Shown here piece by piece: positions 10,785 to 64,000 of a DNA stretch of 64,000 nucleotides. The first letter of the stretch is position 1, and every line of letters begins with the position of its first letter. The DNA lies in NCBI GenBank assembly GCA_000004985.1, contig GG738878.1; one strand, written 5' to 3'. The stretch comes from Naegleria gruberi (lineage: Eukaryota). The translations under genes were made by a program, and so were the position numbers. A model generated the notes under the pieces. That model was not told where the DNA came from. It worked only from the letters and a program-made list of their open reading frames with translations, and searched no databases.

Positions 10785-13700
10785 TTACCACCAATCAGAA
10801 CCAACATTGGAAACTTCTTCAGAGACTGAATTAAAGTTCTTTGTGACTGCCTTGCTTGCTGATGCAAATAAACCTTCGTTGAGTTCATTTTCCAAATCAC
10901 GATGGAAACGATCAGTGATTGGTCTTGTAACAAATTTGAGGTGGAAGGAATAAGTATCCTTTGGCATAACTTTGACCTTTTCTTGTGCCTCCTTTTGGAG
11001 AGTTGCAACTGGGTCAGGTAATAATGAGAACAAAATCTTTTCAAAATTCAAACAGAATTTTTCAAAAGCTTGCTTATTCTCTTTCGTCTTGGAGAACAAC
11101 ATTCCTTTCCACTTGAGTTCCTTTCTGTATTTAGTAATGACCAAGTAGAGAGTTTCAGCAATAACTTTGCAGTGTGGATGACTCTTATATTCGTTAATGT
11201 TTGTTTCAAAGTCCTTCAAGATGACGGATGTATATCTTCCAATTTCATTCTTATAGCTAATTTCCAAGAGCATGTAATAATTAAGGGACCAAATGATAGG
11301 ATGGACATAGTTAACAACAGCACCTCTTTCTTCAGTAAAGAGTGCAGTCTTTAACCATTCAGTTGGTTGTTTCAAAAGTTTCAACTTTCTTTCGAGTGGA
11401 AGTGAAAATATGATAGTATTGAACAATCTACCAAAGTTTGAGCTTACCAAAAATTGGTTGGAAGTCAAATTGTTTTGTGAATCGATAACCAAAAAGTTTT
11501 GAGAATTACCACCTGTTGAAGGGATAAAGAATAAGGAATCGCAAACTGTTGTTGGTAATTCCTTATATTTGGCAGTGCCTAAGGTTGTTTTAGAGAGAGC
11601 TCCACTCTTTTGAGGATTGAACTTGAGGGCATGTGAAGTGTATACTCTGCTTGGGGCCTTTTTCAAGAGTGTTTTTTGAATGTAATCAGTACACTTTCTA
11701 GCCAAGTTACTTTCACCTGGGGTTGAGAGTAAGAACATTTCTTTTAGTTCGGTTTGAGGAATGACATGACCCTTGCATGGCACAAAAAGTCTAGTCTTGA
11801 ACTTTTCAGCATCTACATTACCAATGAAAATTACACCACCTTCTGTTGGCTTTGTATTCTCCTCTTTCCAAGTTGGTCCTCTCAATAATTGTAACAAATC
11901 AGCAGAATCCATATATTGATCATCTCCTTGATTGAACATTGGATGAACAATGAGTTTACCTTCAAATCCACCATTTACCCATGTGATAGGATGTCTATCC
12001 TTTGTTCCTCTCACATAGGATATTCCACCATATCGCTCAATATCCCAAATGTTAACACTAAGTCCCAATCCTTCAAATATCTTGATGTAACATAAAAACT
12101 CAGGTCTTTGAATTTGCTTATCAGTAAAGAATAATACATCGAATGGATTTTGACCTGGTACAGTAGGGAAATAATTTGGAGTCAAACGGATCATACTTTC
12201 AAGGTTTTCAATTTTCTTTCCTCTAAGATGAAGACTAACTTTGAATGGAATAATTTCAAAGAATTGTGCAATATCATTAATTTCAACTTGGAAACTTCTA
12301 GAGTAGGTCATACCAGCTTGAATAAAAGGTATATCTTCTTCAATTCCATTTACTCCATTCAAACCAGGCTCATTATGAACAATAAATCTAGGATCAAATA
12401 CAATATTAAGTTTCAAGTGTTGTCTCTCGCCGACAGTAGAACCATAATTCATCATGGAAATATTCTTAAATGTAACAGTAACAGTGCCTCTCTCTGTTCT
12501 TCCCAACTGTGGTGGAGCAAAAATAGCCTCAAATTGAATTGGGTATTGAATAATGTAGTCATTCTTAAGGAAGGCACCTGGGAATGGTGATGTAAGAAGG
12601 GTTGCAGATGATTGGACTGGGAGAATTGACTTGTAAGGTCCAACACCCATAGGTTCTGGTGTATCAGAGATGGTACCAAAGAATTGGAATGGTATTGTGA
12701 AAATTCCTCCAGGAAGAATAGCTTGATCCAAAACATAAAAAGTATCTGCAGAGAGGAAAGATTGTTGACCTTGAGTACTAGGGAAGGAAATTACTGTTCC
12801 TACTGGCAAAATCATACCACCTTGGTTGGATAAAGTGACAGCAGATACAAATACAGTTTCACCAGGTTCAAAAACTCCATCATCTTCAGTTGCAAAGAGT
12901 TGGAAAGAAGTAACAAACAAATCAAATACAGATGTACCCTGATCCAAAATGTTATTAGTTATTGGATCATAGACACGGAAGAGTAAACTTCCAGGCATGC
13001 CATCTTGACCGTCTTGACCTCCCATACCCCTAAAATTTTTTGAAATTGAATAATGTTTGTTAATAGTTGATACTTACTGTCTTCCTGATTGACCATTTTG
13101 ACCTGATTGACCACTTCTACCATCTGAACCTCTTTCTCCAGAGCTAAGACTTTCACTATCAACAGGTTGCCCTGCAGAACCACCACTACCACCACTGCCT
13201 CCACTGCCACCACTACCGCCATGACCACCACTACCACCACATCCTGGATCACCTCCGTAACCTCTTCTACCAGCCCTACATTCAGCTTGAACAAATTTTA
13301 AAAGGGCTGGATTATGTGTTTCAATAACTACACTTCCACCACTTCCTCCATTTCCTCCACTATTGGATTTAAAATTAATTGAGTCTATAAGAAACTTACT
13401 TGGCTCCATTTCCACCACTAATAATTGTTGAATAAATTATATGCAACTTTCCAATACTTACTCTGCACCATCTCCACCACTATTAAAATAATAAAATTTA
13501 ATTGAACTAGCTCACAAATACTTACTTTCCACCACTATTTTCAAAAAATTAATATTCCAAAAATGAAAACATTTCCAAAACTTACTTTCCACCACTAAAT
13601 GCATTTCATTAGTAAACTTTGATTTCTAAATACTTACTCTCCACCACTAGATACATTTAAATTCACAACTAATTCTAGTAATACTTACTCTCCACCATCC

Positions 13701-14430
13701 CCTCCATTACAACCTTTATTACCAGATTTACCACTACCTCCACTACCACCGCTTCCACCACTTCCACCATTGCCACCACTTCCTCCACTACCACCATGAC
13801 CACCACTAAATTTTGAATGAATTATTATCATGCATGAATAGATTACCAGTACTTACTCGCCACCATCTCCTCCATTTGCCAAAAAGACCAAAACCTTTCC
13901 AGCTCCATCATCCAAACACAATGTTTCATTAGCAGTACCACTCACAACAATGGACTTGTGGTTAACTCCTTCAATTGTCACTTTAATATTACCAGCGCTC
14001 TGTGCACTAGTTCCACTTGTACCACTTCATGAAATAATGATCAATAAAAAGGGTGTCCCAATTACTGCTACTACTTACTGCTCACCATGTGTTGCTCTTC
14101 CTCCGCTGGAATATATTAGTATTTCAAACAAATCATTGCTACTTACTGACTACCATTGGTACCATTACCACCTCTCTGACCACTAGAACCCCAAGAACCA
14201 GAATTTCCACTCTATTTCATCATGATGATAAAAAAACAATGATATCCTATGGATGATACTTACACTTCCCCAACTTCCTGAATGCCCACTATTAATAATA
14301 AGAAAAATAATGATCATCATCAAATAGTATAAACATTTTCATGTTATCCAATAAAAACCCACCTAAAACCCGAAACACCCGAAATTCCAGGTTTCCCAGA
14401 AACGTCTACTATAATTGAATTTTTGAGCAT
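10785..14430 (-). CDS. Glycine-rich repeat protein with a micro-exon array and a large C-terminal domain of unknown function (multi-exon; 5' end uncertain)
   Basis: The 3' exon 10785..~13033 (746-aa ORF) is joined upstream to many small exons. These include 9-nt exons (TGGTGGAGA / TGGTGGAAA) at ~13637-13645, ~13586-13594 and ~13526-13534, and 18-nt exons at ~13462-13479 and ~13401-13418. Each has gtaagt donors (seen as 'acttac' on the + strand) and (t)ag acceptors. Larger Gly/Ser-rich exons lie at ~13069-13365, ~13690-13810 and ~13850-14030, with further small exons up to a candidate ATG near 14430. The encoded repeats are DGGE/DGGK/NGGDGAE/GGSGGSGG. The track ORFs 13074..13418 and 12959..13294 are pieces or alternate frames of this gene. 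Confidence 0.55.
13395..13700 (-). repeat. Tandem array of ~60-bp genomic units, each = one 9- or 18-nt Gly-codon micro-exon + ~45-nt intron (part of the Gly-rich gene)
   Basis: The + strand shows the periodic motif (a)tacttac-t(c/t)tccaccact at ~13401, 13462, 13526, 13586 and 13637. This is the reverse complement of ag|TGGTGGA(G/A)A|gtaagta. Confidence 0.6.
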
Positions 14431-14829: not shown

Positions 14830-16485
14830 ATGGATGCATTGTGTTTGGAATTGATCTTTTCCTACTGTTTACCTCATAGTATATTTTCGGTGTGTAGTTT
14901 GGTGTGTAGAGAGTGGTCCGAGTTGATCCGATCAAGAGATTTCTTCAAAAGATATTCGAAAATGAAAATGCGATCTGTGGTGGGACCTTTTAATTGGATT
15001 GAAATGATGAGTTGTGTCGATTATGAATTTTATGAATTAATTTCATCCTTTTTATATTCGGTCAAGTCTGAAAATTGTCGAATTTTACCAAATCACATTC
15101 AAATAATGGTTCCATCGAGTGATCACGATCGGAAATATTTAATTTTCTATGATCGGGAAGAGAAACTCTATAGAATATTGAAAGATGAGAAAGATGAAAT
15201 GATTCCCTATCATGAAGAGGATGATGGAATGGGTAAAATTAAAGAGCTTGTGAAGAGTGCAAAGGTAGTTTCGGCTAAAATTAATTCAGAAACTTTCTAT
15301 TCGGTTGATCTTATGCATACCCATACGGAGTGTCAGCAAGAAGGCTTGGAATGGTTGTTGCAACAGCAAACAAAATATTTCGACCATATTCCTACGGAAT
15401 TCTTTTTCAGTATTTTGGATTTTCACACAAATCCATCAAGTTTTAGGTTTGACAGATTTTGTATAGGAGGGGAGTTGTTAAATGCGTTGAAACATGAAAA
15501 AATTCTGCCTGAATCCCATAATACTCAATTCAAGCATTTCAATGTAACAAAAATTGGAACCAAAGCTTCAAATTTGTGGAATTATCCTTACGAAGGAGCA
15601 CTGGAGAGATTGTTCAATAGAGGTAAATTGAGTAATGAGTTGGGAATTGATTTGATTCATAGAGGATTTGAAATTTCAATGCGTACATTGATTTCAAAAG
15701 ATTCTCAATTGGCTCTTGATCTAACAGTTGAATATTGTAAAGTGAATCAAATTGATTTGTTGAGGAAGATTGCCATGAAAGATCATGTTCATATTACAAA
15801 CGCTGTGGAAATGTTTTACTATTTCACATGTTGCGTTTTTCAAATTCCTATCTGGCTCTATTCTCCTTCTAATAGATGGATTGATTATATCAAAAATTTG
15901 GATTCTAATATTCATTTTCCATTTGCTTCAAAATGTGAAACTCTATCAGAAGAATTACAAATGCCAAGAGTCTGCCTCCTTGCTAAGAAATCCCTTCAAG
16001 ATTCCTCTTATGGAAGAATTCAATTGGACAGACTATCTTACATTACGAAGAATTATGTAAAATCTGTGAATATTCAATATATCGAAGAAGATTTAGTGCA
16101 ATACGATAAACTCAATGAGGAATTTTCACACTATGACTGTATCATATATTGCGTGGAGAGATTAGATACCAGTACTAATAACAAAGAAGAGAAAGGAATT
16201 GATTTTAATGTGTTGAAACATTTGGCTGAAAGTGGAAAGAGAATTTGCTTTATGTTTAAAATAGAGAATTTGAAAAACTTCCCAAAATCACCAATTCCAT
16301 TACTGAAACATGTCAAATGTGGTCTATTTGAGTTTTCTGAACGAAACATTCACACTCTCATTACAGGACGAGATATAGACATTAAGGAAACTAAATATAA
16401 GGGTGTTGATCCTTGTCCACCTCCACCAACTCAAAACAATGATGATGATGAAGAAGAAGAATATTATTCTAGCATCTTTTATTAA
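14830..16485 (+). CDS. F-box-like domain protein with acidic C-terminus
   Basis: 551 aa. The N-terminal LELIFSYCLPHSIFSVCSLVCREWSELIRSRDFFKRY matches the F-box pattern (L..I...L....L..C..VCK.W). The C-terminus is DDDEEEEYYSSIFY. Its stop is 22 nt from the stop of the convergent NmrA-like gene. Confidence 0.5.
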   Translation: MDALCLELIFSYCLPHSIFSVCSLVCREWSELIRSRDFFKRYSKMKMRSVVGPFNWIEMMSCVDYEFYELISSFLYSVKSENCRILPNHIQIMVPSSDHDRKYLIFYDREEKLYRILKDEKDEMIPYHEEDDGMGKIKELVKSAKVVSAKINSETFYSVDLMHTHTECQQEGLEWLLQQQTKYFDHIPTEFFFSILDFHTNPSSFRFDRFCIGGELLNALKHEKILPESHNTQFKHFNVTKIGTKASNLWNYPYEGALERLFNRGKLSNELGIDLIHRGFEISMRTLISKDSQLALDLTVEYCKVNQIDLLRKIAMKDHVHITNAVEMFYYFTCCVFQIPIWLYSPSNRWIDYIKNLDSNIHFPFASKCETLSEELQMPRVCLLAKKSLQDSSYGRIQLDRLSYITKNYVKSVNIQYIEEDLVQYDKLNEEFSHYDCIIYCVERLDTSTNNKEEKGIDFNVLKHLAESGKRICFMFKIENLKNFPKSPIPLLKHVKCGLFEFSERNIHTLITGRDIDIKETKYKGVDPCPPPPTQNNDDDEEEEYYSSIFY

Positions 16486-17870
16486 TAGATATTAATGTGA
16501 AACAATATTATTGTTGATTGATTGTTTTGAATAATCTTGGTTTGATATCTTGGAAGAGATTACTATTGGAGCTTTCAACTCTTCTTCCTGAAATAATTGT
16601 CCATCTTAATTGCTCCAAAAGAATTGGAAATAATTCACTTGGAGAATTTAACTTTTCGGCAATTCTTTCTTGGATGGATTTAATCCAATCAGCTGCTGTT
16701 TGATCTTGTTTGAATTCAATATTTTCACCATGAATGAAATGAGCAATTTCCTTAACTGTCAAAGTGTCAGAAGCAACATTAATATCACCAACAATATCCT
16801 TTCTGATAGCAGCTTTAGCTACAAACTTTCCAATATCTTCTAAAAAGCTAACATCAACCTTTTCACTCAAATCACCATTGTAATGAACTGTCTTGGTTTC
16901 TGTGTCAAACTTGTTGAATAATAAGAAGGAAGCCATATGAGCAAAGATTCCAACATTCACTTGAGTCCATTCTAAACCACTTTGTTTGATAGTTTCAGTA
17001 ATTTTGAACTTGGCATCATTTAACATACTTTCCTCAGGTTTGAAAAGATTTAAATTCAAACCATAGGTTGTTGGAAGGTACTTTTTTACACCTGCCTTCT
17101 TGGAAGCTTCAATGAGTTTCAATTGACCTTGAAGCAATAGCTCAGGATTAGCTGCAAGAGCAGTGATGACTACCTCTTTACCAGACAATGCATTTACGAG
17201 CTCCTCTTCACTTGTTGAGAGAATATCCCCAACAATTACATTAGCTCCCTTTTCTTTCAAAGAGGCAACCTTTTCCTCATTTCTAACATGCAAGGTCAAC
17301 TTGACTTGTGGGTAATGTTCTAAGATTGCTTTGGCAATTTCGAGACCACAATTTCCACCAGCTCCAATAACAATTACAGAAGTGTATTGATTTTGTTGAG
17401 TAGAAGACATTATTATAGAATTCTAGGTAATAAATTACAAGAGATATTCAGTTGTTTTTTTGTTGTTGTTTTTTGGATCATGGTTTCAAAATCTCTTCCT
17501 TAAATACTGTGTCAGTATAGTTTGGCAATAGACACAAGTAATGATATTTGTGCGTCCTCGTTTAACAGCAAAACGGACACATATGTTGCTCTGTGTCGGA
17601 AATGAATCCCGACCAAGTAGTTTTACAAAATAAAAGATTTTCAAGTGAGAACTTTCAAAGATTTGAGCTTATTAATTATTTTCAAACCTTAGCCTTTTCC
17701 GAAAATATGGAAATTATTTATAAAATTTCAACATTACATGAATCAATTTGTTTTACAAAGTCAGATCCAAAACATAGGGATGGAGTGAGACAACCACTTT
17801 CAATCTTCAAATCGTGTCCAGTGAGAATCTTCAAAGCACTCAAAAGAGCTGATTCGGCAGTGAATAAATA
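16440..17870. repeat. Segmental duplication, copy A (inverted relative to copies B and C): F-box gene 3' end + NmrA-like gene + promoter + SDH-like 3' end
   Basis: The reverse complement of ~16440-17870 matches ~60490-61923 nearly base-for-base. This includes the intergenic sequence and the last codons of the F-box gene (cttcttcttcatcatcatc at 61897-61915). Confidence 0.8.
16508..17410 (-). CDS. NmrA-like / isoflavone-reductase-like NAD(P)-binding oxidoreductase (copy 1 of 3)
   Basis: 300 aa. The N-terminal Rossmann motif is VIVIGAGGNCGLEIAKAIL, and the length and architecture fit NmrA/PCBER-type atypical SDRs. It is about 98% identical at the protein level to the copy at 60949..61851. Confidence 0.65.
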   Translation of the reverse strand: MSSTQQNQYTSVIVIGAGGNCGLEIAKAILEHYPQVKLTLHVRNEEKVASLKEKGANVIVGDILSTSEEELVNALSGKEVVITALAANPELLLQGQLKLIEASKKAGVKKYLPTTYGLNLNLFKPEESMLNDAKFKITETIKQSGLEWTQVNVGIFAHMASFLLFNKFDTETKTVHYNGDLSEKVDVSFLEDIGKFVAKAAIRKDIVGDINVASDTLTVKEIAHFIHGENIEFKQDQTAADWIKSIQERIAEKLNSPSELFPILLEQLRWTIISGRRVESSNSNLFQDIKPRLFKTINQQ

Positions 17871-19055
17871 ACCTGCTTTTGTTACAGCTCTTCCAGAAAC
17901 CTTCTTATCACCACAAGTTAAACAACCAGAGATGTGAACTCTATCTTTTTCAGTTTCTTCTGGACCCTTTGGCATGAATATGTCAATAGCTTTGAACATG
18001 AGTGGTACAACAAATGGCAAATTGAATAAGAGGAAGAAGAGAATAGTCACAAACCAAATATTGTAAATTCTGGCAACAGTTGGAGCATTCTTTGAGGATG
18101 TGAAATAAACTCTAATATTTGGAACTTGAGTACTGACATAACCAGTTGCAATATCACCCCATGGAACTGACATGCAAGTTAAAGATTTGGTATTTTTGGT
18201 TGTTTCATCATAAAACTCAAAATCCTTAGCAACAAGTGGATGTGGACCAATCTTGTGATTAACTCTTTCTGGGAATCCCCAAGGAGCTTCCTTCATCATA
18301 TTGACTGCACTCTTAGTTGTACCTCTAGACATGCCAGATTTACCAGTATTAATTGCAAGTTCAATTTGAGCCTTAGAATCATGAGAAGCTCCCTCACCAT
18401 ACTTTTTATCAAAAGCTTCTTGAAGAGATTTGGCCAAACAATCAGTTGGAACAACATCGAAACCAACCTATGAAAATTAAAGATTTTTCAAAGTTAATTA
18501 TTCATCTACTTACTCCAGGCATTAAAATGATATTCTTTTGTTTGGCAGCAATTTTACAAGCTTCATTTTCGAGAATACTTTGGAATACAGTATCTATTCG
18601 AATTTCAAATAATTATTAGAAATTAATATCAACAAATCAAATGATATTAGAAAGGCTTAAAAAAACAATTCAAACCTACACTCTCCAGTAATATCAATAT
18701 AATGAACACCAGTTCTCAAACAACTATCAACAACTCTCTTTGAAGTATGAGCAAAAGGTCCAGCAACCAACATGACAAGATCAACCTTTCCAATATGTTC
18801 ATCCAAATCCCTATCATCCAAACCAAACACTTGATATTCAACACTATTTTCTTCAATTTGTTGTCTCTTCATCATACTTTTAAGTTGTTCTCCCGATCGT
18901 CCAGCCAAAACAACTCTATTCAATAAATTAAATTTCTTTACTAATTTTACAACAAGTTCTCCTGTATAACCATAGGCACCATAAATCATAAATTTCTGGC
19001 CGGCTGATAATTTGCCGATCAGAGTTTGAATTAATTGATCGTAATTTAAAGACAT
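17718..19055 (-). CDS. Saccharopine-dehydrogenase-like oxidoreductase (SCCPDH family), three exons
   Basis: Exons are ~19055..18680 (MSLNY...YGAYGYTGELVVKLV, a Rossmann/Sacchrp_dh NADP-binding N-terminus), ~18593..18514 and ~18467..17718. The introns are gtaggt..aatag and gtaagt..catag, and the product is about 400 aa. The last ~50 codons lie inside the duplicated block and reappear as fragments at 60485..60673 and ~62930..63130. Confidence 0.6.
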
Positions 19056-56787: not shown

Positions 56788-58440
56788 ATGCCTGAAATTG
56801 CACTTCAGGAGGAGGTGGTTATTATTTATGATTCTGGATTCAGAAATTATTCAAATATTCAAAATGATGCCTCAACTGATCTTTCTCCCATCAATCTTCC
56901 AAGAGAAATAATTTCATCAATTTTTGAATATTTAGACGAAACAACACTAATGCACTCAATCCGATTAGTTTCTACGGGTTGGAATGCCATACTCGAAGAT
57001 GATCTCATGATCGGACCAGTTTCTTTATTTTCCAACCATCAAATTATTCAACATCAACAATTGACTGATCTTTCGAATAGAAACACATGTATTGATCATC
57101 AAATAATTTCAATATTCAAGAACTTCGTTAGATATCACAAATCATACATTTTGGAATTTAAAAAATTCACTCTAGATTCGTATTTGACTTTCACAATTGA
57201 CCGAAAACAACGTGAAAAGTTTTTTTCTGTAAAATCGACTCCAGATGTGGAATGGCACAATTTGGATTTCACAGACGATACCAATGATTCAGATTATTTA
57301 AAATCATTAGTTTTGGAAAATATTGGAAATTGTAATTCGAATGACAAGATTAATTGGTTTACCATATTTAGAAATGCCAAGAATGATTGTATTTCTTTCC
57401 ATACTTTTTTGGAAAAGAGAAAACAATCAATGGATAGAACGAATTTATTATATAGAAAATTGTACTTTCCATTAATGATATTTTTATTTATTATTTTTGG
57501 AATTTTACTTTTATGTAATTTTAACTATTTCCAAAAAGGGGAATTTAATTATTTTCTACTAATTTGCTTTTCTCCCTTATTCATGATACTAGTTCTATTA
57601 ACTAATATTCCATTCACTTTAATTGGAATATTAATTAAGGATTACAATGTACTTCAAAAAGAATTACAAAAGAGAGATTTCTATTTTAGGACATCTCCTT
57701 CCAGTGAAACTTACAAAGAATTAAGAATTAGAATACTCACTCGATTATTTTCCAAAATTGCGATTCAAATTTCCTTATTCTCACTCTTACTTTCCATTTT
57801 AGCATTTGCCATTTTACAATGCTTTGCACTGGTATTTCCATTAAAAATCGAACCATACGAATATGCAAGCATTTACAATTTTAGAGCTTTACTTTCACAT
57901 GGAATATTCGTAACTGCTCCGTTTTTCATAGCCTCACCAATTACCTCCCTATTCTTTGTGGCAACAGATTCGGTTTTCATTCAATACGTTATTCTAAACA
58001 AACACTATATTACTTTGTTAGTGGATTATGTTGTACATCTGGGAGCAGGTTTGCTTCCAGTTGGAATTCTCATTACTGACATTTATGTAACAGGGTATTT
58101 GATTTCTTTCGTATTGTTGAGTTGTTTCTTTGGAGCAATGGACATGTTTCTTTTTGTTGGGCTTGTGGATTATTTCAAAAGGAAGAGATTAAGTTTATTG
58201 ACATTTATTAGATCTGAATATTTGCTTTTATTGGATAGATTATGCTTGATGGTTGCTTTCTTAATACTAATTGGATTTCCAATTGGTTGTTTTGTAATGG
58301 CATTTGACGTCTATCAAAATGGAGTGATTTATGCAAGCTTTTTGATTGGTGGCATGTCAATACTGTTATGTTACATTGGATTCTCATTTTGCTTGAAAGA
58401 ATCAGTTTACCTAATGGCCAAACCTACAGCATTACTTTAA
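56788..58440 (+). CDS. F-box-like domain protein with C-terminal polytopic membrane domain
   Basis: 550 aa. The N-terminal INLPREIISSIFEYLDETTLMHSIRLVSTGWNAIL is an F-box pattern. The C-terminal ~330 aa contain about 8 hydrophobic helices (LMIFLFIIFGILLLC, LLICFSPLFMILVLL, IQISLFSLLLSILAFAILQCFALVF, and others). Confidence 0.5.
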   Translation: MPEIALQEEVVIIYDSGFRNYSNIQNDASTDLSPINLPREIISSIFEYLDETTLMHSIRLVSTGWNAILEDDLMIGPVSLFSNHQIIQHQQLTDLSNRNTCIDHQIISIFKNFVRYHKSYILEFKKFTLDSYLTFTIDRKQREKFFSVKSTPDVEWHNLDFTDDTNDSDYLKSLVLENIGNCNSNDKINWFTIFRNAKNDCISFHTFLEKRKQSMDRTNLLYRKLYFPLMIFLFIIFGILLLCNFNYFQKGEFNYFLLICFSPLFMILVLLTNIPFTLIGILIKDYNVLQKELQKRDFYFRTSPSSETYKELRIRILTRLFSKIAIQISLFSLLLSILAFAILQCFALVFPLKIEPYEYASIYNFRALLSHGIFVTAPFFIASPITSLFFVATDSVFIQYVILNKHYITLLVDYVVHLGAGLLPVGILITDIYVTGYLISFVLLSCFFGAMDMFLFVGLVDYFKRKRLSLLTFIRSEYLLLLDRLCLMVAFLILIGFPIGCFVMAFDVYQNGVIYASFLIGGMSILLCYIGFSFCLKESVYLMAKPTALL

Positions 58441-58896: not shown

Positions 58897-59881
58897 GTGG
58901 CCACACAGAAAATCAACAAGAAAAAAAAAATGGATGAAGTTACAACTCTCTACCCTCATGTTGAAAAGTGGCTGAAATCAATAGTGCACAATTTCCAAGA
59001 TTTCAAAGAGGCCATGTCGGCACTAACCACTATTAAAAGTATTTGTCAAAATATAATTTTACAACCTTCAGATGAAAAAGTTAAAAAGATACGATTGACC
59101 AATCCACGCTTTGTTGCGAGTGTAGGAAAATTGCCAGGTGCCATCAATCTTCTTTGTTTAATAGGATTTGATAAAGTTATACAAGACAAGGAAGAATATT
59201 TAATATTTGGTTCAAATGATTTGACACCCCTCAAGACCATGCAATCAGTAATTTCTGCCATAATCAAAAGTAACGATCTCAACACTGAATCTACCAATCC
59301 AATTATTGAGCAAGTGTTAACCATGGCAAACAAGAGTATCGAAGAGCAAAAATTATTCTTACTGAAACGTACAGTAACTGATCGTTGCAATATGACAGGA
59401 ATGTTTTTTCTTGGGTATGCTTCTGGGTGTTTTGCTGATGGTAGAAATCTAGAATGGAAGAAAGAAGTTATACGAATTGCCATCAACTGTTTCAAATTTG
59501 ATTGGTTGCAACCAGTTATGAAAGATATCGAGTTCTTTCCGTGCTTGTCTTCTGAATTGGAGAAGAGTAAATATTTGGTGACATGGCTCTGTATTGGTAG
59601 ACTATTCGAATGCTATGAGTCTGTAGTGGTAAGGATACAACAGCTGCACAGTATTGCTGGAAGCATGGCAATGTTTTTGAAAAATAGGAATGATGAATAT
59701 TTTTCTTCTTGGGGTCCTAAATGGATAGATCATTTATTGGAATGCATTGATGATGCTGGCATTTGTAAAAACTTTTTATTGACACTCACATGTTTGATTG
59801 AGGATTTCAATGTCATTGACAACTTCTTGCATGGTACTAAGAAAGTTTTTGTTAGAACAGAAGAAATAGGGACAAATATCT
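58897..59881 (+). CDS. PUB (PNGase/UBA or UBX)-domain protein, 3'-truncated by scaffold gap
   Basis: The ORF runs into the N gap at 59882. It carries a PUB-domain signature (KIRLTNPRFVASVGKLPGAINLLCLIGF, compare NPKYR.IRL.N..F...V.....G...L...GF). It is unclear whether it is an independent gene or the 5' part of the downstream kinase. Confidence 0.45.
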
Positions 59882-59931
59882 NNNNNNNNNNNNNNNNNNN
59901 NNNNNNNNNNNNNNNNNNNNNNNNNNNNNNN
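59882..59931. other. Scaffold gap (50 N); a second identical-length gap lies at 61924-61973
   Basis: Runs of exactly 50 n. Both fall at boundaries of the tandemly duplicated unit, which is typical of unresolved repeat assembly. Confidence 0.95.
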
Positions 59932-60488
59932 GGATATTATTGAACAGATCATTGAACAAGTTGGAATTGGAATTCATTCTTTGCATTCAAAGGAATTAGC
60001 TCATCGTGATAGCAAATATTTTGGTCAGTGGTTCAAACAAGCTCTTCATTTGCTTGTGTGATTTTGATTTTGTCAATGATAACCTCACAACATCCTTATC
60101 TATTGTGGGGACTCCAAAATATCTTCCTCCTGAAATGATTAGTCAGGGGATCCTTTTAAAGAAGAATAGTACAAAGATTGACATTTGGTGCTTTGGAATA
60201 ATCATTTTTAGAATATTGTGTGAATTACTTGGTATTGATTGTTTTTCAGATTGTCCTGAAGAGATACTCGTAGAAGATGATATAAGATTAGGAAGAGCAA
60301 AGGATAGCGAACAATTGAGACAATATCTGGATAAGAAACTTTCAACATCAGAGCTATTGATCAATTATACTTTGGGAGAAGGAAGAAGAATCACCCGATT
60401 TATTGAACTTACGAGGCAATTACTCGAATACCAATATGAGAAGAGGCCAAATGCTTCCACATTAATTGAACTCATTCAGACTCCTTGA
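59932..60488 (+). pseudogene. Protein kinase C-terminal fragment, copy 1 of the 62196..62930 gene, with a frameshifting 8-nt deletion in the catalytic-loop codons
   Basis: 59932-60488 aligns with 62373-62930. Copy 2 reads gctcatcgtgatttgaaggaagcaaat (HRDLKEAN). Copy 1 reads gctcatcgtgatagcaaat, which loses the HRDLK frame. The 5' part is hidden by the 50-N gap. Confidence 0.45.
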
Positions 60489-60673
60489 TAAAAATTCGAA
60501 TTAGTAATTTTTCCATTAGCTCTTTTGAGAGCTTTGAAAATTCTCACTGGACACAATTCAAGATTGAAAGTGGTTGTCTCACTCCATCCCTATGTTTTGG
60601 ATCTGACTTTGTAAAACAAATTGATTCATGTAATGTTGAAATTCCTATTATTCTAAGGTTTGAAAATCATTAA
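60485..60673 (+). pseudogene. Fragment of the saccharopine-dehydrogenase-like gene 3' end, carried inside the duplicated block (a second fragment lies at about 62930-63130)
   Basis: Its translation ...FKIESGCLTPSLCFGSDFVKQIDSCNVEI matches the C-terminus of the 17718..19055 gene, and the nucleotide sequence is the reverse complement of ~17718-17870. Confidence 0.5.
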
Positions 60674-60948
60674 TAAGCTCAAATAGTTGAGTGCTTTGAA
60701 CTCTTTTTGAAAGTTCTCATGCTGGTTATTTTGTAAAACTACTTGGTCGGGATTCATTTCCGACACAGAGCAACATATGTGTCTGTTTTGCTGTTAAAAA
60801 AGGACGCACAAATATCATCATCACTTGTGTCTATTGCCAAACTATACTGACACAGTATTTAAGGAAGAGATTTTGAAACCATGATCCAAAAAACAACAAC
60901 AAAAAAACAACTGAATATCTCTTGTAATTTACCTAGAATTCTATAATA

Positions 60949-61851
60949 ATGTCTTCTAATCAACAAAATCAATACACTTCTGTAATTGTTATTGGAGCTG
61001 GTGGAAATTGTGGTCTCGAAATTGCCAAAGCAATCTTGGAACATTACCCACAAGTCAAGTTGACCTTGCATGTTAGAAATGAGGAAAAGGTTGCCTCTTT
61101 GAAAGAAAAGGGAGGTAATGTAATTGTTGGGGATATTCTCTCAACAAGTGAAGAGGAGCTCGTAAATGCATTGTCTGGTAAAGAGGTAGTCATTACTGCT
61201 CTTGCAGCTAATCCTGAGCTATTGCTTAAAGGTCAATTGAAACTCATTGAAGCTTCCAAGAAGGCAGGTGTTAAAAAGTACCTTCCAACAACCTATGGTT
61301 TGAATTTAAATCTTTTCAAACCCGAGGAAAGTATGTTAAATGATGCCAAGTTCAAAATTACTGAAACTATCAAACAAAGTGGTTTAGAATGGACTCAAGT
61401 GAATGTAGGAATCTTTGCTCATATGGCTTCCTTCTTATTATTCACCAAGTTTGATGCAGAAACCAAGACAGTTCATTACAATGGTGATTTGAGTGAAAAG
61501 GTTGATGTTAGCTTTTTAGAAGATATTGGAAAGTTTGTAGCTAAATCTGCTATCAGAAAGGATATTGTTGGTGATATTAATGTTGCTTCTGACACTTTGA
61601 CAGTTAAGGAAATTGCTCATTTCATTCATGGTGAAAATATTGAATTCAAACAAGATCAAACAGCAGCTGATTGGATTAAATCCATCCAAGAAAGAATTGC
61701 CGAAAAGTTAAATTCTCCAAGTGAATTATTTCCAATTCTTTTGGAGCAATTAAGATGGACAATTATTTCAGGAAGAAGAGTTGAAAGCTCCAATAATAAT
61801 CTCTTCCAAGATATCAAGCCAAGATTATTCAAAACAATCAATCAACAATAA
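60949..61851 (+). CDS. NmrA-like NAD(P)-binding oxidoreductase (copy 2 of 3)
   Basis: 300 aa, differing from copy 1 at about 7 residues. It has the same promoter-proximal sequence, including the element ccgacacagagcaacatatgtgtc. Confidence 0.65.
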   Translation: MSSNQQNQYTSVIVIGAGGNCGLEIAKAILEHYPQVKLTLHVRNEEKVASLKEKGGNVIVGDILSTSEEELVNALSGKEVVITALAANPELLLKGQLKLIEASKKAGVKKYLPTTYGLNLNLFKPEESMLNDAKFKITETIKQSGLEWTQVNVGIFAHMASFLLFTKFDAETKTVHYNGDLSEKVDVSFLEDIGKFVAKSAIRKDIVGDINVASDTLTVKEIAHFIHGENIEFKQDQTAADWIKSIQERIAEKLNSPSELFPILLEQLRWTIISGRRVESSNNNLFQDIKPRLFKTINQQ

Positions 61852-61973
61852 TATTGTTTCACATTAATATCTATTAATAAAAGATGCTAGAATAATATCT
61901 TCTTCTTCATCATCATCGTCATGNNNNNNNNNNNNNNNNNNNNNNNNNNNNNNNNNNNNNNNNNNNNNNNNNN

Positions 61974-62930
61974 TATTTTCCTGTCTTTCTTAGTCAATAC
62001 TTGCGTGACAATTACAAAGATCCAAGATATATAGGAAATGGTAACTTTGGAACTGTTTATTTGGTAACTCATCAATATTTCGATGAAAGAAAAGCAATCA
62101 AACAGTTTTCATTGAGGCAAGAGATAGAAATTGATGAACTAATGAAATGTGTAAGTGTCTTGTCATTTTGATAGTGCTAAAAAGCAAAGTATGAATTGAT
62201 TGGCAAAGATTCTCCTCATGTTCTTCCTGTGGAAGGAGTTTTTAAAACTAAAATTAAGGATGACCTTTTTGGCCTGGAAGTTTTGACACCAAAAATGGAA
62301 ATGTCATTAGATGTTTATTTACGAAAGCACTTGTTTGCAAATTCAAAACCACTGTCAACAAAATTGGATATTATTGAACAGATCATTGAACAAGTTGGAA
62401 TTGGAATTCATTCTTTGCATTCAAAGGAATTAGCTCATCGTGATTTGAAGGAAGCAAATATTTTGGTCAGTGGTTCAAACAAGCTCTTCATTTGCTTGTG
62501 TGATTTTGATTTTGTCAATGATAACCTCACAACATCCTTATCTATTGTGGGGACTCCAAAATATCTTCCTCCTGAAATGATTAGTCAGGGGATCCTTTTA
62601 AAGAAGAATAGTACAAAGATTGACATTTGGTGCTTTGGAATAATCATTTTTAGAATATTGTGTGAATTACTTGGTATTGATTGTTTTTCAGATTGTCCTG
62701 AAGAGATACTCGTAGAAGATGATATAAGATTAGGAAGAGCAAAGGATAGCGAACAATTGAGACAATATCTGGATAAGAAACTTTCAACATCAGAGCTATT
62801 GATCAATTATACTTTGGGAGAAGGAAGAAGAATCACCCGATTTATTGAACTTACGAGGCAATTACTCGAATACCAATATGAGAAGAGGCCAAATGCTTCC
62901 ACATTAATTGAACTCATTCAGACTCCTTGA
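61974..62930 (+). CDS. Protein kinase (divergent; Gly-loop GNGNFGTV, AIK, HRDLKEAN, DFDF in place of DFG, GTPKYLPPE), 5'-truncated by scaffold gap, at least two exons
   Basis: Exon a runs from after the gap at ~61974 to 62150 (...YIGNGNFGTVYLVTHQYFDERKAIKQFSLRQEIEIDELMKC). A ~39-nt intron (gtaagt..aaag) is the only splice that keeps the frame, and exon b is ~62190..62930. The second half duplicates 59932..60488. Confidence 0.55.
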
Positions 62931-63261
62931 TAAAAATTTGAATTAGTAATTTTTCCATTAGCTCTTTTGAGAGCTTTGAAAATTCTCACTGGACACAATT
63001 CAAGATTGAAAGTGGTTGTCTCACTCCATCCCTCTGTTTTGGATCTGACTTGTAAAACAAATTGATTCATGTAATGTTGAAATTTTATAAATAATTTCCA
63101 TATTTTCGAAAATTCCTAAAATTCTAAGGTTTGAAAATCATTAATAAGCTCAAATCGTTGAGTGCTTTGAAAGTTCTCACTGGAAAATCTTGTATTTTGT
63201 CCAAACAACAACAACAAAAAAACAACTGAATATCTTATAATTTATTACCTAGAATTCTAAA

Positions 63262-64000
63262 ATGTCTTCTAATCAACAAAATCAATACACTTCTGTAATT
63301 GTTATTGGAGCTGGTGGAAATTGTGGTCTCGAAATTGCCAAAGCAATCTTGGAACATTACCCACAAGTCAAGTTGACCTTGCATGTTAGAAATGAGGAAA
63401 AGGTTGCCTCTTTGAAAGAAAAGGGAGCTAATGTAATTGTTGGGGATATTCTCTCAACAAGTGAAGAGGAGCTCGTAAATGCATTGTCTGGTAAAGAGGT
63501 AGTCATCACTGCTCTTGCAGCTAATCCTGAGCTATTGCTTCAAGGTCAATTGAAACTCATTGAAGCTTCCAAGAAGGCAGGTGTAAAAAAGTACCTTCCA
63601 ACAACCTATGGTTTGAATTTAAATCTTTTCAAACCTGAGGAAAGTATGTTAAATGATGCCAAGTTCAAATTACTGAAACTATCAAACAAAGTGGTTTAGA
63701 ATGGACTCAAGTGAATGTTGGAATCTTTGCTCATATGGCTTCCTTCTTATTATTCAACAAGTTTGATGCAGAAACCAAGACAGTTCATTACAATGGTGAT
63801 TTGAGTGAAAAGGTTGATGTTAGCTTTTTAGAAGATATTGGAAAGTTTGTAGCTAAAGCTGCTATCAGAAAGGATATTGTTGGTGATATTAATGTTGCTT
63901 CTGACACTTTGACAGTTAAGGAAATTGCTCATTTCATTCATGGTGAAAATATTGAATTCAAACAAGATCAAACAGCAGCTGATTGGATTAAATCCATCCA
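63262..64000 (+). pseudogene. NmrA-like gene copy 3, partial at the window end, with a 1-nt homopolymer deletion causing a frameshift at about 63668
   Basis: Copy 2 has gccaagttcaaaattactgaaact; copy 3 has gccaagttcaaattactgaaact (one A fewer). The ORF then terminates (…AKFKLLKLSNKVV*), but the downstream sequence in the -1 frame still encodes the NmrA-like protein. This could be real decay or a homopolymer sequencing error. Confidence 0.45.

Follow-up and report, generated by a model that had tools for sequence, protein, structure and literature searches.

Three copies of an NmrA-like gene lie within a 64,000-nucleotide (nt) stretch of the Naegleria gruberi genome, one of them (copy A) near one end and the other two (copies B and C) near the other end, on the opposite strand and beside a protein-kinase gene. 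How did the gene come to be present three times, which copy is the original, and are the two distal copies really a tandem pair? The whole stretch, referred to here as the window, is part of the Joint Genome Institute (JGI) Sanger draft assembly of strain NEG-M (GenBank assembly GCA_000004985.1, contig GG738878.1) and has a base composition of 34% G+C. The scaffold is 395,411 bp long. A first-pass annotation, made from the letters alone, had described a recent inverted duplication of a gene block with a tandem pair of distal copies.

We propose that locus A was the source of a contiguous segment, at least 1.41 kb long, that was copied a single time and inserted in inverted orientation about 43 kb away, 30 nt downstream of the stop codon of a kinase gene. 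This segment would have comprised the last 45 codons of a saccharopine-dehydrogenase-like (SDH-like) gene, the NmrA-like gene with its upstream region, and the 3' end of a convergent F-box-like gene. That there was a single inverted dispersed duplication with A as its source is, taken alone, very probable. To the whole explanation, in which copies B and C are in addition read as two haplotypes of one distal locus, we give a probability of roughly 0.5.

The repeat and its extent

The copies were found by self-BLASTN of the window, and their parts were compared in three- and four-way alignments. The source block occupies positions 16441-17853 on the minus strand, and consists of the 3' end of the SDH-like gene, intergenic DNA with the promoter, the NmrA-like gene and the 3' end of the F-box-like gene. 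The NmrA-like gene of copy A (16508-17410, minus strand) is an intronless open reading frame (ORF) of 300 amino acids that matches Pfam NmrA, with 307 bp of intergenic DNA on its upstream side. The SDH-like gene contributes only its last 45 codons (17718-17853, 136 nt). These belong to its last exon, an ORF of 239 codons (17718-18437, minus strand) which gave no match to any Pfam, NCBIfam or PDB family; the upstream exon (18657-19055) carries the Pfam domain Sacchrp_dh_NADP. The F-box-like gene (14830-16485, plus strand) is an ORF of 551 amino acids with gene model EFC42611. It is convergent with NmrA, and its last 15 codons (16441-16485) are inside the block as this is seen in copy B. Its score of 23.4 bits against the F-box-like profile is just under the cut-off of 24.3, and the match is thus marginal.

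Comparison of the window with itself, which the first-pass annotation had recommended, bears out the inverted repeat. Copy A (16441-17853) aligns with copy B (61917-60515) at 94.3% identity over 1430 columns, with 38 mismatches and 8 gap openings (E=0). Copy C is matched in two segments, A 16671-17477 with 64000-63200 at 98.4% and A 17625-17853 with 63200-62957 at 87.4%. Copies B and C match each other at 97.5% over 60885-61688 and 63200-64000, and a further match between 59932-60700 and 62366-63171 covers the 3' half of the kinase gene and the junction. The distal copies are inverted, as had been described, but the homology begins at 60515 and 62957 rather than at 60490 and 62935; the 25 nt or so ahead of 60515 and 62957 are kinase-side flank and lie outside the homology of the block.

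A segmental duplication is usually taken to be a repeat of at least 1 kb with at least 90% identity between non-adjacent copies. The repeat described here is of this kind, its copies being on opposite strands and 43 kb apart. The NmrA proteins of A and B differ at 7 of 300 residues (97.7% identity), which agrees with the earlier estimate of about 98% and with a recent duplication. Among these differences is A56G, the exchange between KGANV and KGGNV that had been put forward as diagnostic of the copies; Q94K, N166T, A200S and S283N are further diagnostic exchanges. Self-BLAST of the 64 kb returned no other sizeable repeat except one pair of 54-bp direct repeats (13180-13233 and 13755-13808), with 89% identity.

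A single insertion beside a kinase gene

Copies B and C have the same junction, which consists of the kinase stop codon, 30 nt, and then the SDH fragment starting from the base homologous to A 17853. The earlier observation that NmrA adjoins a protein-kinase gene is therefore correct. In both cases the kinase stop, the spacer and the SDH remnant are contiguous inside contigs (60489-60515 in B and 62931-62957 in C).

Two further sequences carry this junction. They are European Nucleotide Archive (ENA) contigs from one metagenome sample (ERZ929261), come from a very close relative, and are called L001 (2,756 bp) and L002 (898 bp) below. The kinase-side junction is common to B, C and L001, and so are a 1-bp deletion at A 17808 and about 9 substitutions relative to A. 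From the shared junction, deletion and substitutions we therefore infer a single insertion of A-type sequence at the distal site. The junction between the kinase gene and the SDH remnant is independently confirmed by L001 and L002, and is real biology and no artefact of the NEG-M assembly.

These observations bear directly on the suggestion that there was no duplication at all, and that the distal copies are simply reads of locus A that have been misplaced. The gaps on either side of copy B would be in keeping with this. However, the copies show many indels relative to A besides a divergence of 1.5-6%, and B and C are joined inside contigs to unique kinase sequence, at a junction that recurs in the independent metagenome contigs. 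The suggestion is already refuted by these facts, and we attach practically no probability to it.

The direction of copying is indicated by the SDH piece. At locus A this ends an uninterrupted ORF of 239 codons, whereas the distal copies hold only an orphan fragment of 130 nt whose frame is broken, and for this reason A is the probable source. The argument is sound but is not a demonstration, because it relies on the continuity of the reading frame and not on conservation of the C-terminus in the protein family. The first-pass annotation had reasoned from truncation of both neighbours that locus A is ancestral. The SDH fragment upholds that reasoning; the truncation of the F-box gene coincides with the end of a contig, only 6 non-homologous nt preceding the gap, and is not established.

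Along with parts of both neighbouring genes the block retains the 307 bp upstream of NmrA, and it has no poly(A), which is not what a processed retrocopy looks like. Because it contains promoter DNA and pieces of both neighbours, has no poly(A), and has no other copies in the window, it was probably copied at the level of DNA, and we hypothesise a dispersed segmental duplication, neither retroposition nor transposition. The NmrA copy would have arrived with its own upstream region and could on this account have stayed expressed, while the fragments of the neighbouring genes would be dead passengers.

Another route by which the block might have moved is a mobile element (capture of the Helitron or Pack type) or retroposition. 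It is true that fragments of three genes are present, as in captured segments, and that a 6-bp hairpin is found at the distal junction. However, the fragments form one contiguous piece of A, complete with intergenic DNA and a convergent neighbour and without poly(A). The alignments show no obvious terminal repeats or target-site duplication, although no systematic search for these was made; and there are no further copies in the window and only three members in the protein cluster. Such a route is very improbable.

The hairpin itself was read by eye. It is perfect in the distal copies (AGCTCT-TTTG-AGAGCT) and sits exactly at the breakpoint, at 60509-60524 and 62951-62966. Its counterpart at locus A is imperfect (AGCTCT-TTTG-AGTGCT).

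Structure of the two distal copies

The whole of copy B is found on a contig island of 1,992 bp (59932-61923, plus strand) with gaps on both sides. The window contains only two runs of N, each of exactly 50 N: gap 1 (59882-59931) is at the left edge of the island, and gap 2 (61924-61973) comes 6 nt beyond the last base of copy B that is homologous to A. The island begins in the middle of the kinase gene, where it aligns to 62366 of the next contig. Its 3' half of the kinase gene (59932-60488, plus strand) corresponds exactly to 62366-62930, save for an 8-bp deletion after 60009, which falls in the HRDLKxxN catalytic loop and shifts the frame. The duplicated block follows at 60515-61917 (plus strand). 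It is made up of an SDH remnant (60515-60643), the upstream region, which is kept with small indels, an intact NmrA gene (60949-61851, with the 7 amino acid changes already mentioned) and an F-box tail (61874-61917).

The block of copy C starts at 62957 (plus strand) and runs off the end of the window at 64000, with an SDH remnant at 62957-63090 and an NmrA gene that starts at 63262. It had been described earlier as the less perfect of the two distal copies. This is not simply so, as its coding sequence is the closest of the copies to A, with 4 substitutions in 739 nt; on the other hand, two lesions had been missed. In the upstream region 148 bp (A 17625-17478) are missing, at 63199/63200, and within the NmrA gene a 1-bp deletion after 63666, within a run of A nucleotides, causes a frameshift. 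Either NmrA copy C is a pseudogene, or there is a base-calling error in this run. The gene model EFC42620, which has 293 amino acids and is without 7 residues of A around the frameshift, apparently bypasses it by means of an introduced intron.

The kinase gene beside copy C (61974-62930, plus strand) is an ORF matching Pfam Pkinase. It is open from the edge of gap 2, has a short intron at about 62151-62189, and ends with a stop codon at 62928-62930. No lesion interrupts the assembled part of the ORF, and its gene model (EFC42619) is partial, being a fragment of 211 amino acids. A search for homologues of the kinase returned only the NEG-M model, plus the 898-bp ENA contig from the cluster listing.

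Divergence between the copies

Divergence of the NmrA coding sequences was estimated by the method of Nei and Gojobori, as proportions of synonymous (pS) and nonsynonymous (pN) differences. Between A and B pS is 0.037 and pN 0.010; between A and C they are 0.013 and 0.0035, and between B and C 0.026 and 0.007. In the non-coding parts the distance from A is 4-7%, to which indels must be added.

Two features of these comparisons are not clock-like. In the NmrA coding sequence there are 8 substitutions unique to B and none unique to C (binomial p = 0.008), even though C has the distal junction of B. In addition, B and C show no substitutions over the 557 positions of the kinase half but 22 in 995 past the junction (Fisher p = 6e-5). 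This sharp mosaic had escaped the first-pass annotation, as had the frameshift in the kinase gene beside B. Both patterns can be produced by gene conversion (of A with C, and of the kinase beside B with that beside C), by selection, or by the way in which reads were partitioned.

One codon has changed more than once, although the differences are very few overall. Codon 283 of NmrA (16562-16564 in A, 61795-61797 in B, and about 1282-1284 in L001) encodes Ser in A and C, Asn in B and Thr in L001.

Tandem copies or two haplotypes

The tandem pair of the first-pass annotation has not been established, because the join from B to C is an unsequenced gap of 50 N and the start of B is another gap. A tandem duplication would be recognised by adjacent units joined by continuous sequence; here 61924-61973 comes between them, and the arrangement, one chosen by the scaffolder, is thus unproven, though not disproven. 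The first-pass annotation had itself pointed to the risk of an assembly artefact. An island that begins within the kinase gene and is colinear with the next contig is expected of a collapsed tandem repeat as well as of an allelic haplotig put in by the scaffolder. As it stands in this assembly, the apparent tandem pair is indistinguishable from two haplotypes that have been split by the assembler.

Several observations favour haplotypes. The contig of copy B is short, is bounded by gaps, begins within the kinase gene and is colinear with its neighbour, 59932-61923 corresponding to 62366 through to 64000. It extends 557 bp into the kinase gene without a substitution relative to C. This is roughly the length of one Sanger read, and short contig islands that are colinear with a neighbour are a typical haplotig artefact in heterozygous Sanger assemblies, which at the same time counts against a tandem duplication. 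An ORF with a PUB domain (58897-59881, plus strand; Pfam PUB, 74.3 bits) is still open where it enters gap 1, and the kinase ORF is already open at the edge of gap 2; with contig B lifted out, the two would face each other as one gene does. Should contig B be a misplaced haplotig, the PUB ORF may supply the 5' part of the kinase gene. A passage in PMC9928731, citing Fritz-Laylin 2010, reports N. gruberi as heterozygous and the genus as mainly heterozygous diploid.

We suggest that B and C descend from one insertion, and that they are slightly more likely to be two haplotypes of one distal locus. A Sanger assembler would separate such haplotypes, given their several indels, and a scaffolder would then place them next to each other, set off by placeholder gaps.

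The alternative is a true tandem duplication, in which a unit of about 2.4 kb (the 3' part of the kinase gene, the SDH remnant, NmrA and the F-box tail) was doubled head-to-tail after the insertion. The identity of the kinase sequences would then result from a very recent event or from gene conversion, and the gaps from the collapse of identical kinase sequence. The redundant parts would have decayed in a complementary way, B through the 8-bp frameshift in its kinase gene and C through the NmrA frameshift and the 148-bp deletion. We judge that this has somewhat less than an even chance of being correct; the small remainder of the probability falls to other arrangements.

The order of the scaffold as assembled agrees with a tandem duplication, and a number of points weigh for it and against haplotypes. 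Homology to A is lost 6 nt before the end of contig B, as it would be at the boundary of a unit followed by a collapsed repeat. The lesions are complementary, with the kinase gene broken in B and NmrA in C, and this is classic for redundant tandem paralogues. The jump in divergence between B and C at the junction is abrupt for alleles. Two junction variants are present behind one kinase sequence in the metagenome sample, which fits alleles or mixed strains equally. Finally, the 50 N of each gap may be either a measured floor or a fixed placeholder.

Other points are difficult to reconcile with a tandem duplication. The 50 N of gap 1 would have to stand for no less than 0.4 kb of sequence, and the kinase gene beside C would start right after the F-box tail, without its upstream part. 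Moreover, the kinase gene beside B is frameshifted, so that no intact kinase would be left, and yet the kinase is nearly invariant between strains. None of the points raised on either side counts against the dispersed duplication itself.

It is worth adding that a second F-box-like protein is encoded just upstream of the PUB gene, at 56788-58440. It has 550 amino acids and an F-box-like score of 29 bits, and its C-terminal two-thirds look hydrophobic by eye, resembling a multi-pass membrane protein.

The metagenome contigs and the far boundary

The shorter metagenome contig, L002, represents the 3' part of the kinase gene, with 1 substitution in about 750 nt. In its final part (740-898) there is a 20-bp insertion just before the kinase stop, and the junction contains a 30-bp tandem duplication (GTAATTTTTCCATTAAAAGTGCTTTGAAAA, twice). 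It is a different variant of the junction, with A-like states retained in its SDH remnant, and represents a version of the distal junction that is either older or was converted separately.

The longer contig, L001, opens with 22 nt of the distal flank and carries the distal 1-bp deletion. It is then colinear with A as far as 15090, through 465 codons of the F-box gene. It encodes a fourth version of NmrA (P0001), with 8 differences from A. The distance of L001 from A falls from 6.7% in the SDH remnant through 5.4% in the intergenic DNA and 1.1% in NmrA to 0.57% in the F-box gene. The ratio pN/pS relative to A is about 1 for NmrA, and the F-box part has 2 differences in 465 aligned residues.

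The boundary of the duplication on the SDH side is the junction described above. On the F-box side it is uncertain, because the homology of copy B ends at a contig end while L001 continues through at least 465 F-box codons. Three readings of the mosaic structure of L001 remain: a chimera of the k=127 assembly, an original duplication longer than that seen in copy B, or recombination between the inverted copies. When homologues of the F-box protein were sought, the sole match was the gene model of that protein itself, so that NEG-M has no annotated F-box paralogue; for this reason we favour a chimera or recombination.

Taken at face value, L001 would imply either that the duplication was longer than 1.4 kb, with a copied segment of at least 2.76 kb, or that the 43-kb interval was turned round when the inverted A and distal copies recombined ectopically. 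Its union of the distal junction (both the 22 nt of flank and the 1-bp deletion) with a full F-box gene colinear with A is what would be expected, as is the fall in divergence from A along its length. The near-identity of the F-box part, seen next to an NmrA gene with pN/pS of about 1, points the same way. However, L001 comes from a de Bruijn assembly at k=127, and since the copies share exact runs of 151-315 nt a chimera would form easily. Furthermore, no F-box paralogue is annotated in NEG-M, the homology of copy B ends at 61917, and the reciprocal junction was not found. We consider a longer or recombined segment unlikely.

A more specific form of this proposal is that ectopic recombination takes place between the inverted NmrA copies. 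Through gene conversion the coding region of C would stay close to that of A, and in at least one natural N. gruberi lineage a crossover within NmrA would have inverted the 43 kb, with L001 as one of the recombinant junctions. This is more doubtful still. To our knowledge, a sexual cycle has never been observed in N. gruberi.

Relatives were also sought in JGI metagenomes. A scan with a protein pattern found none, and a scan with a 21-nt junction pattern gave only two chance matches in AT-rich sequence, of about 40 nt.

The NmrA family and existing annotation

Copy A matches the Pfam family NmrA (PF05368) with 89.6 bits over residues 11-256, where the cut-off is 27. The GxxGxxG motif of a Rossmann fold is found at residues 14-22 (VIGAGGNCG) in A, B, C and P0001. 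Relatives with 30-36% identity are present in N. lovaniensis, in Willaertia magna, and among other paralogues of N. gruberi. The closest named relative beyond the N. gruberi group has about 35% identity, and the sequence P0011 has 40%. The NmrA-like protein belongs to a native heterolobosean gene family. Lateral transfer of the gene was considered, and was rejected on account of the paralogues and orthologues in N. lovaniensis, Willaertia and N. gruberi.

All of the genes concerned were annotated before, as 'predicted protein'. The NmrA protein of copy A is identical to EFC42704 (NAEGRDRAFT_69423) and is also an exact match to P0007; that of copy B is identical to EFC42618 (NAEGRDRAFT_69438), and copy C corresponds to EFC42620 (NAEGRDRAFT_69440). 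The 90% protein cluster of NmrA has three N. gruberi members only. Exact-protein look-ups for NmrA A, NmrA B, the F-box protein and a neighbouring carrier protein matched no record. In a literature search, no paper was found to name the locus tags, to mention segmental duplications in N. gruberi or to refer to the ENA project.

The analysis documents one young gene duplication in N. gruberi, and flags a probable redundancy of assembly in the reference scaffold. It also draws attention to two gene models, EFC42620, which skips a frameshift, and EFC42619, the partial kinase. Should B and C prove to be alleles, NmrA is present in two copies and not three, and contig B is a misplaced insert that divides a single PUB-kinase gene. 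A genuine mosaic in L001 would mean that recombination or inversion takes place through the inverted copies, a matter of modest interest to Naegleria population genetics; and if the mosaic arose by recombination, it would be direct sequence evidence of a repeat-mediated structural polymorphism.

Comparison with known systems

The gene itself resembles the NmrA-like, or atypical short-chain dehydrogenase-reductase, family in its full-length match to PF05368 and in its dinucleotide-binding motif (GAGGNCG).

The redundancy of the distal copies recalls that produced by haplotigs in draft assemblies. Here too there is a short contig between placeholder gaps, colinear with its neighbour and with a flank free of substitutions over 557 bp, in a species reported to be heterozygous. 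It differs from this pattern in that the last 6 nt of the contig lie beyond the homology to the source, which fits the boundary of a real unit equally well.

The duplication as a whole is most like the young dispersed segmental duplications of eukaryotes. It shares with them a length of more than 1 kb, an identity of 94-98%, and the presence of a whole gene with its promoter and pieces of its neighbours. One junction has little or no microhomology, the redundant parts have decayed, and there is some evidence for uneven rates or gene conversion. It is unlike them in that the block is small (1.4 kb as seen), that it is found in the compact genome of a protist, and that its far boundary lies behind an assembly gap. 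A literature search found no catalogue of segmental duplications for the N. gruberi genome with which it might be compared. The process is well known, this instance of it is ordinary, and the genome in which it occurred was already annotated.

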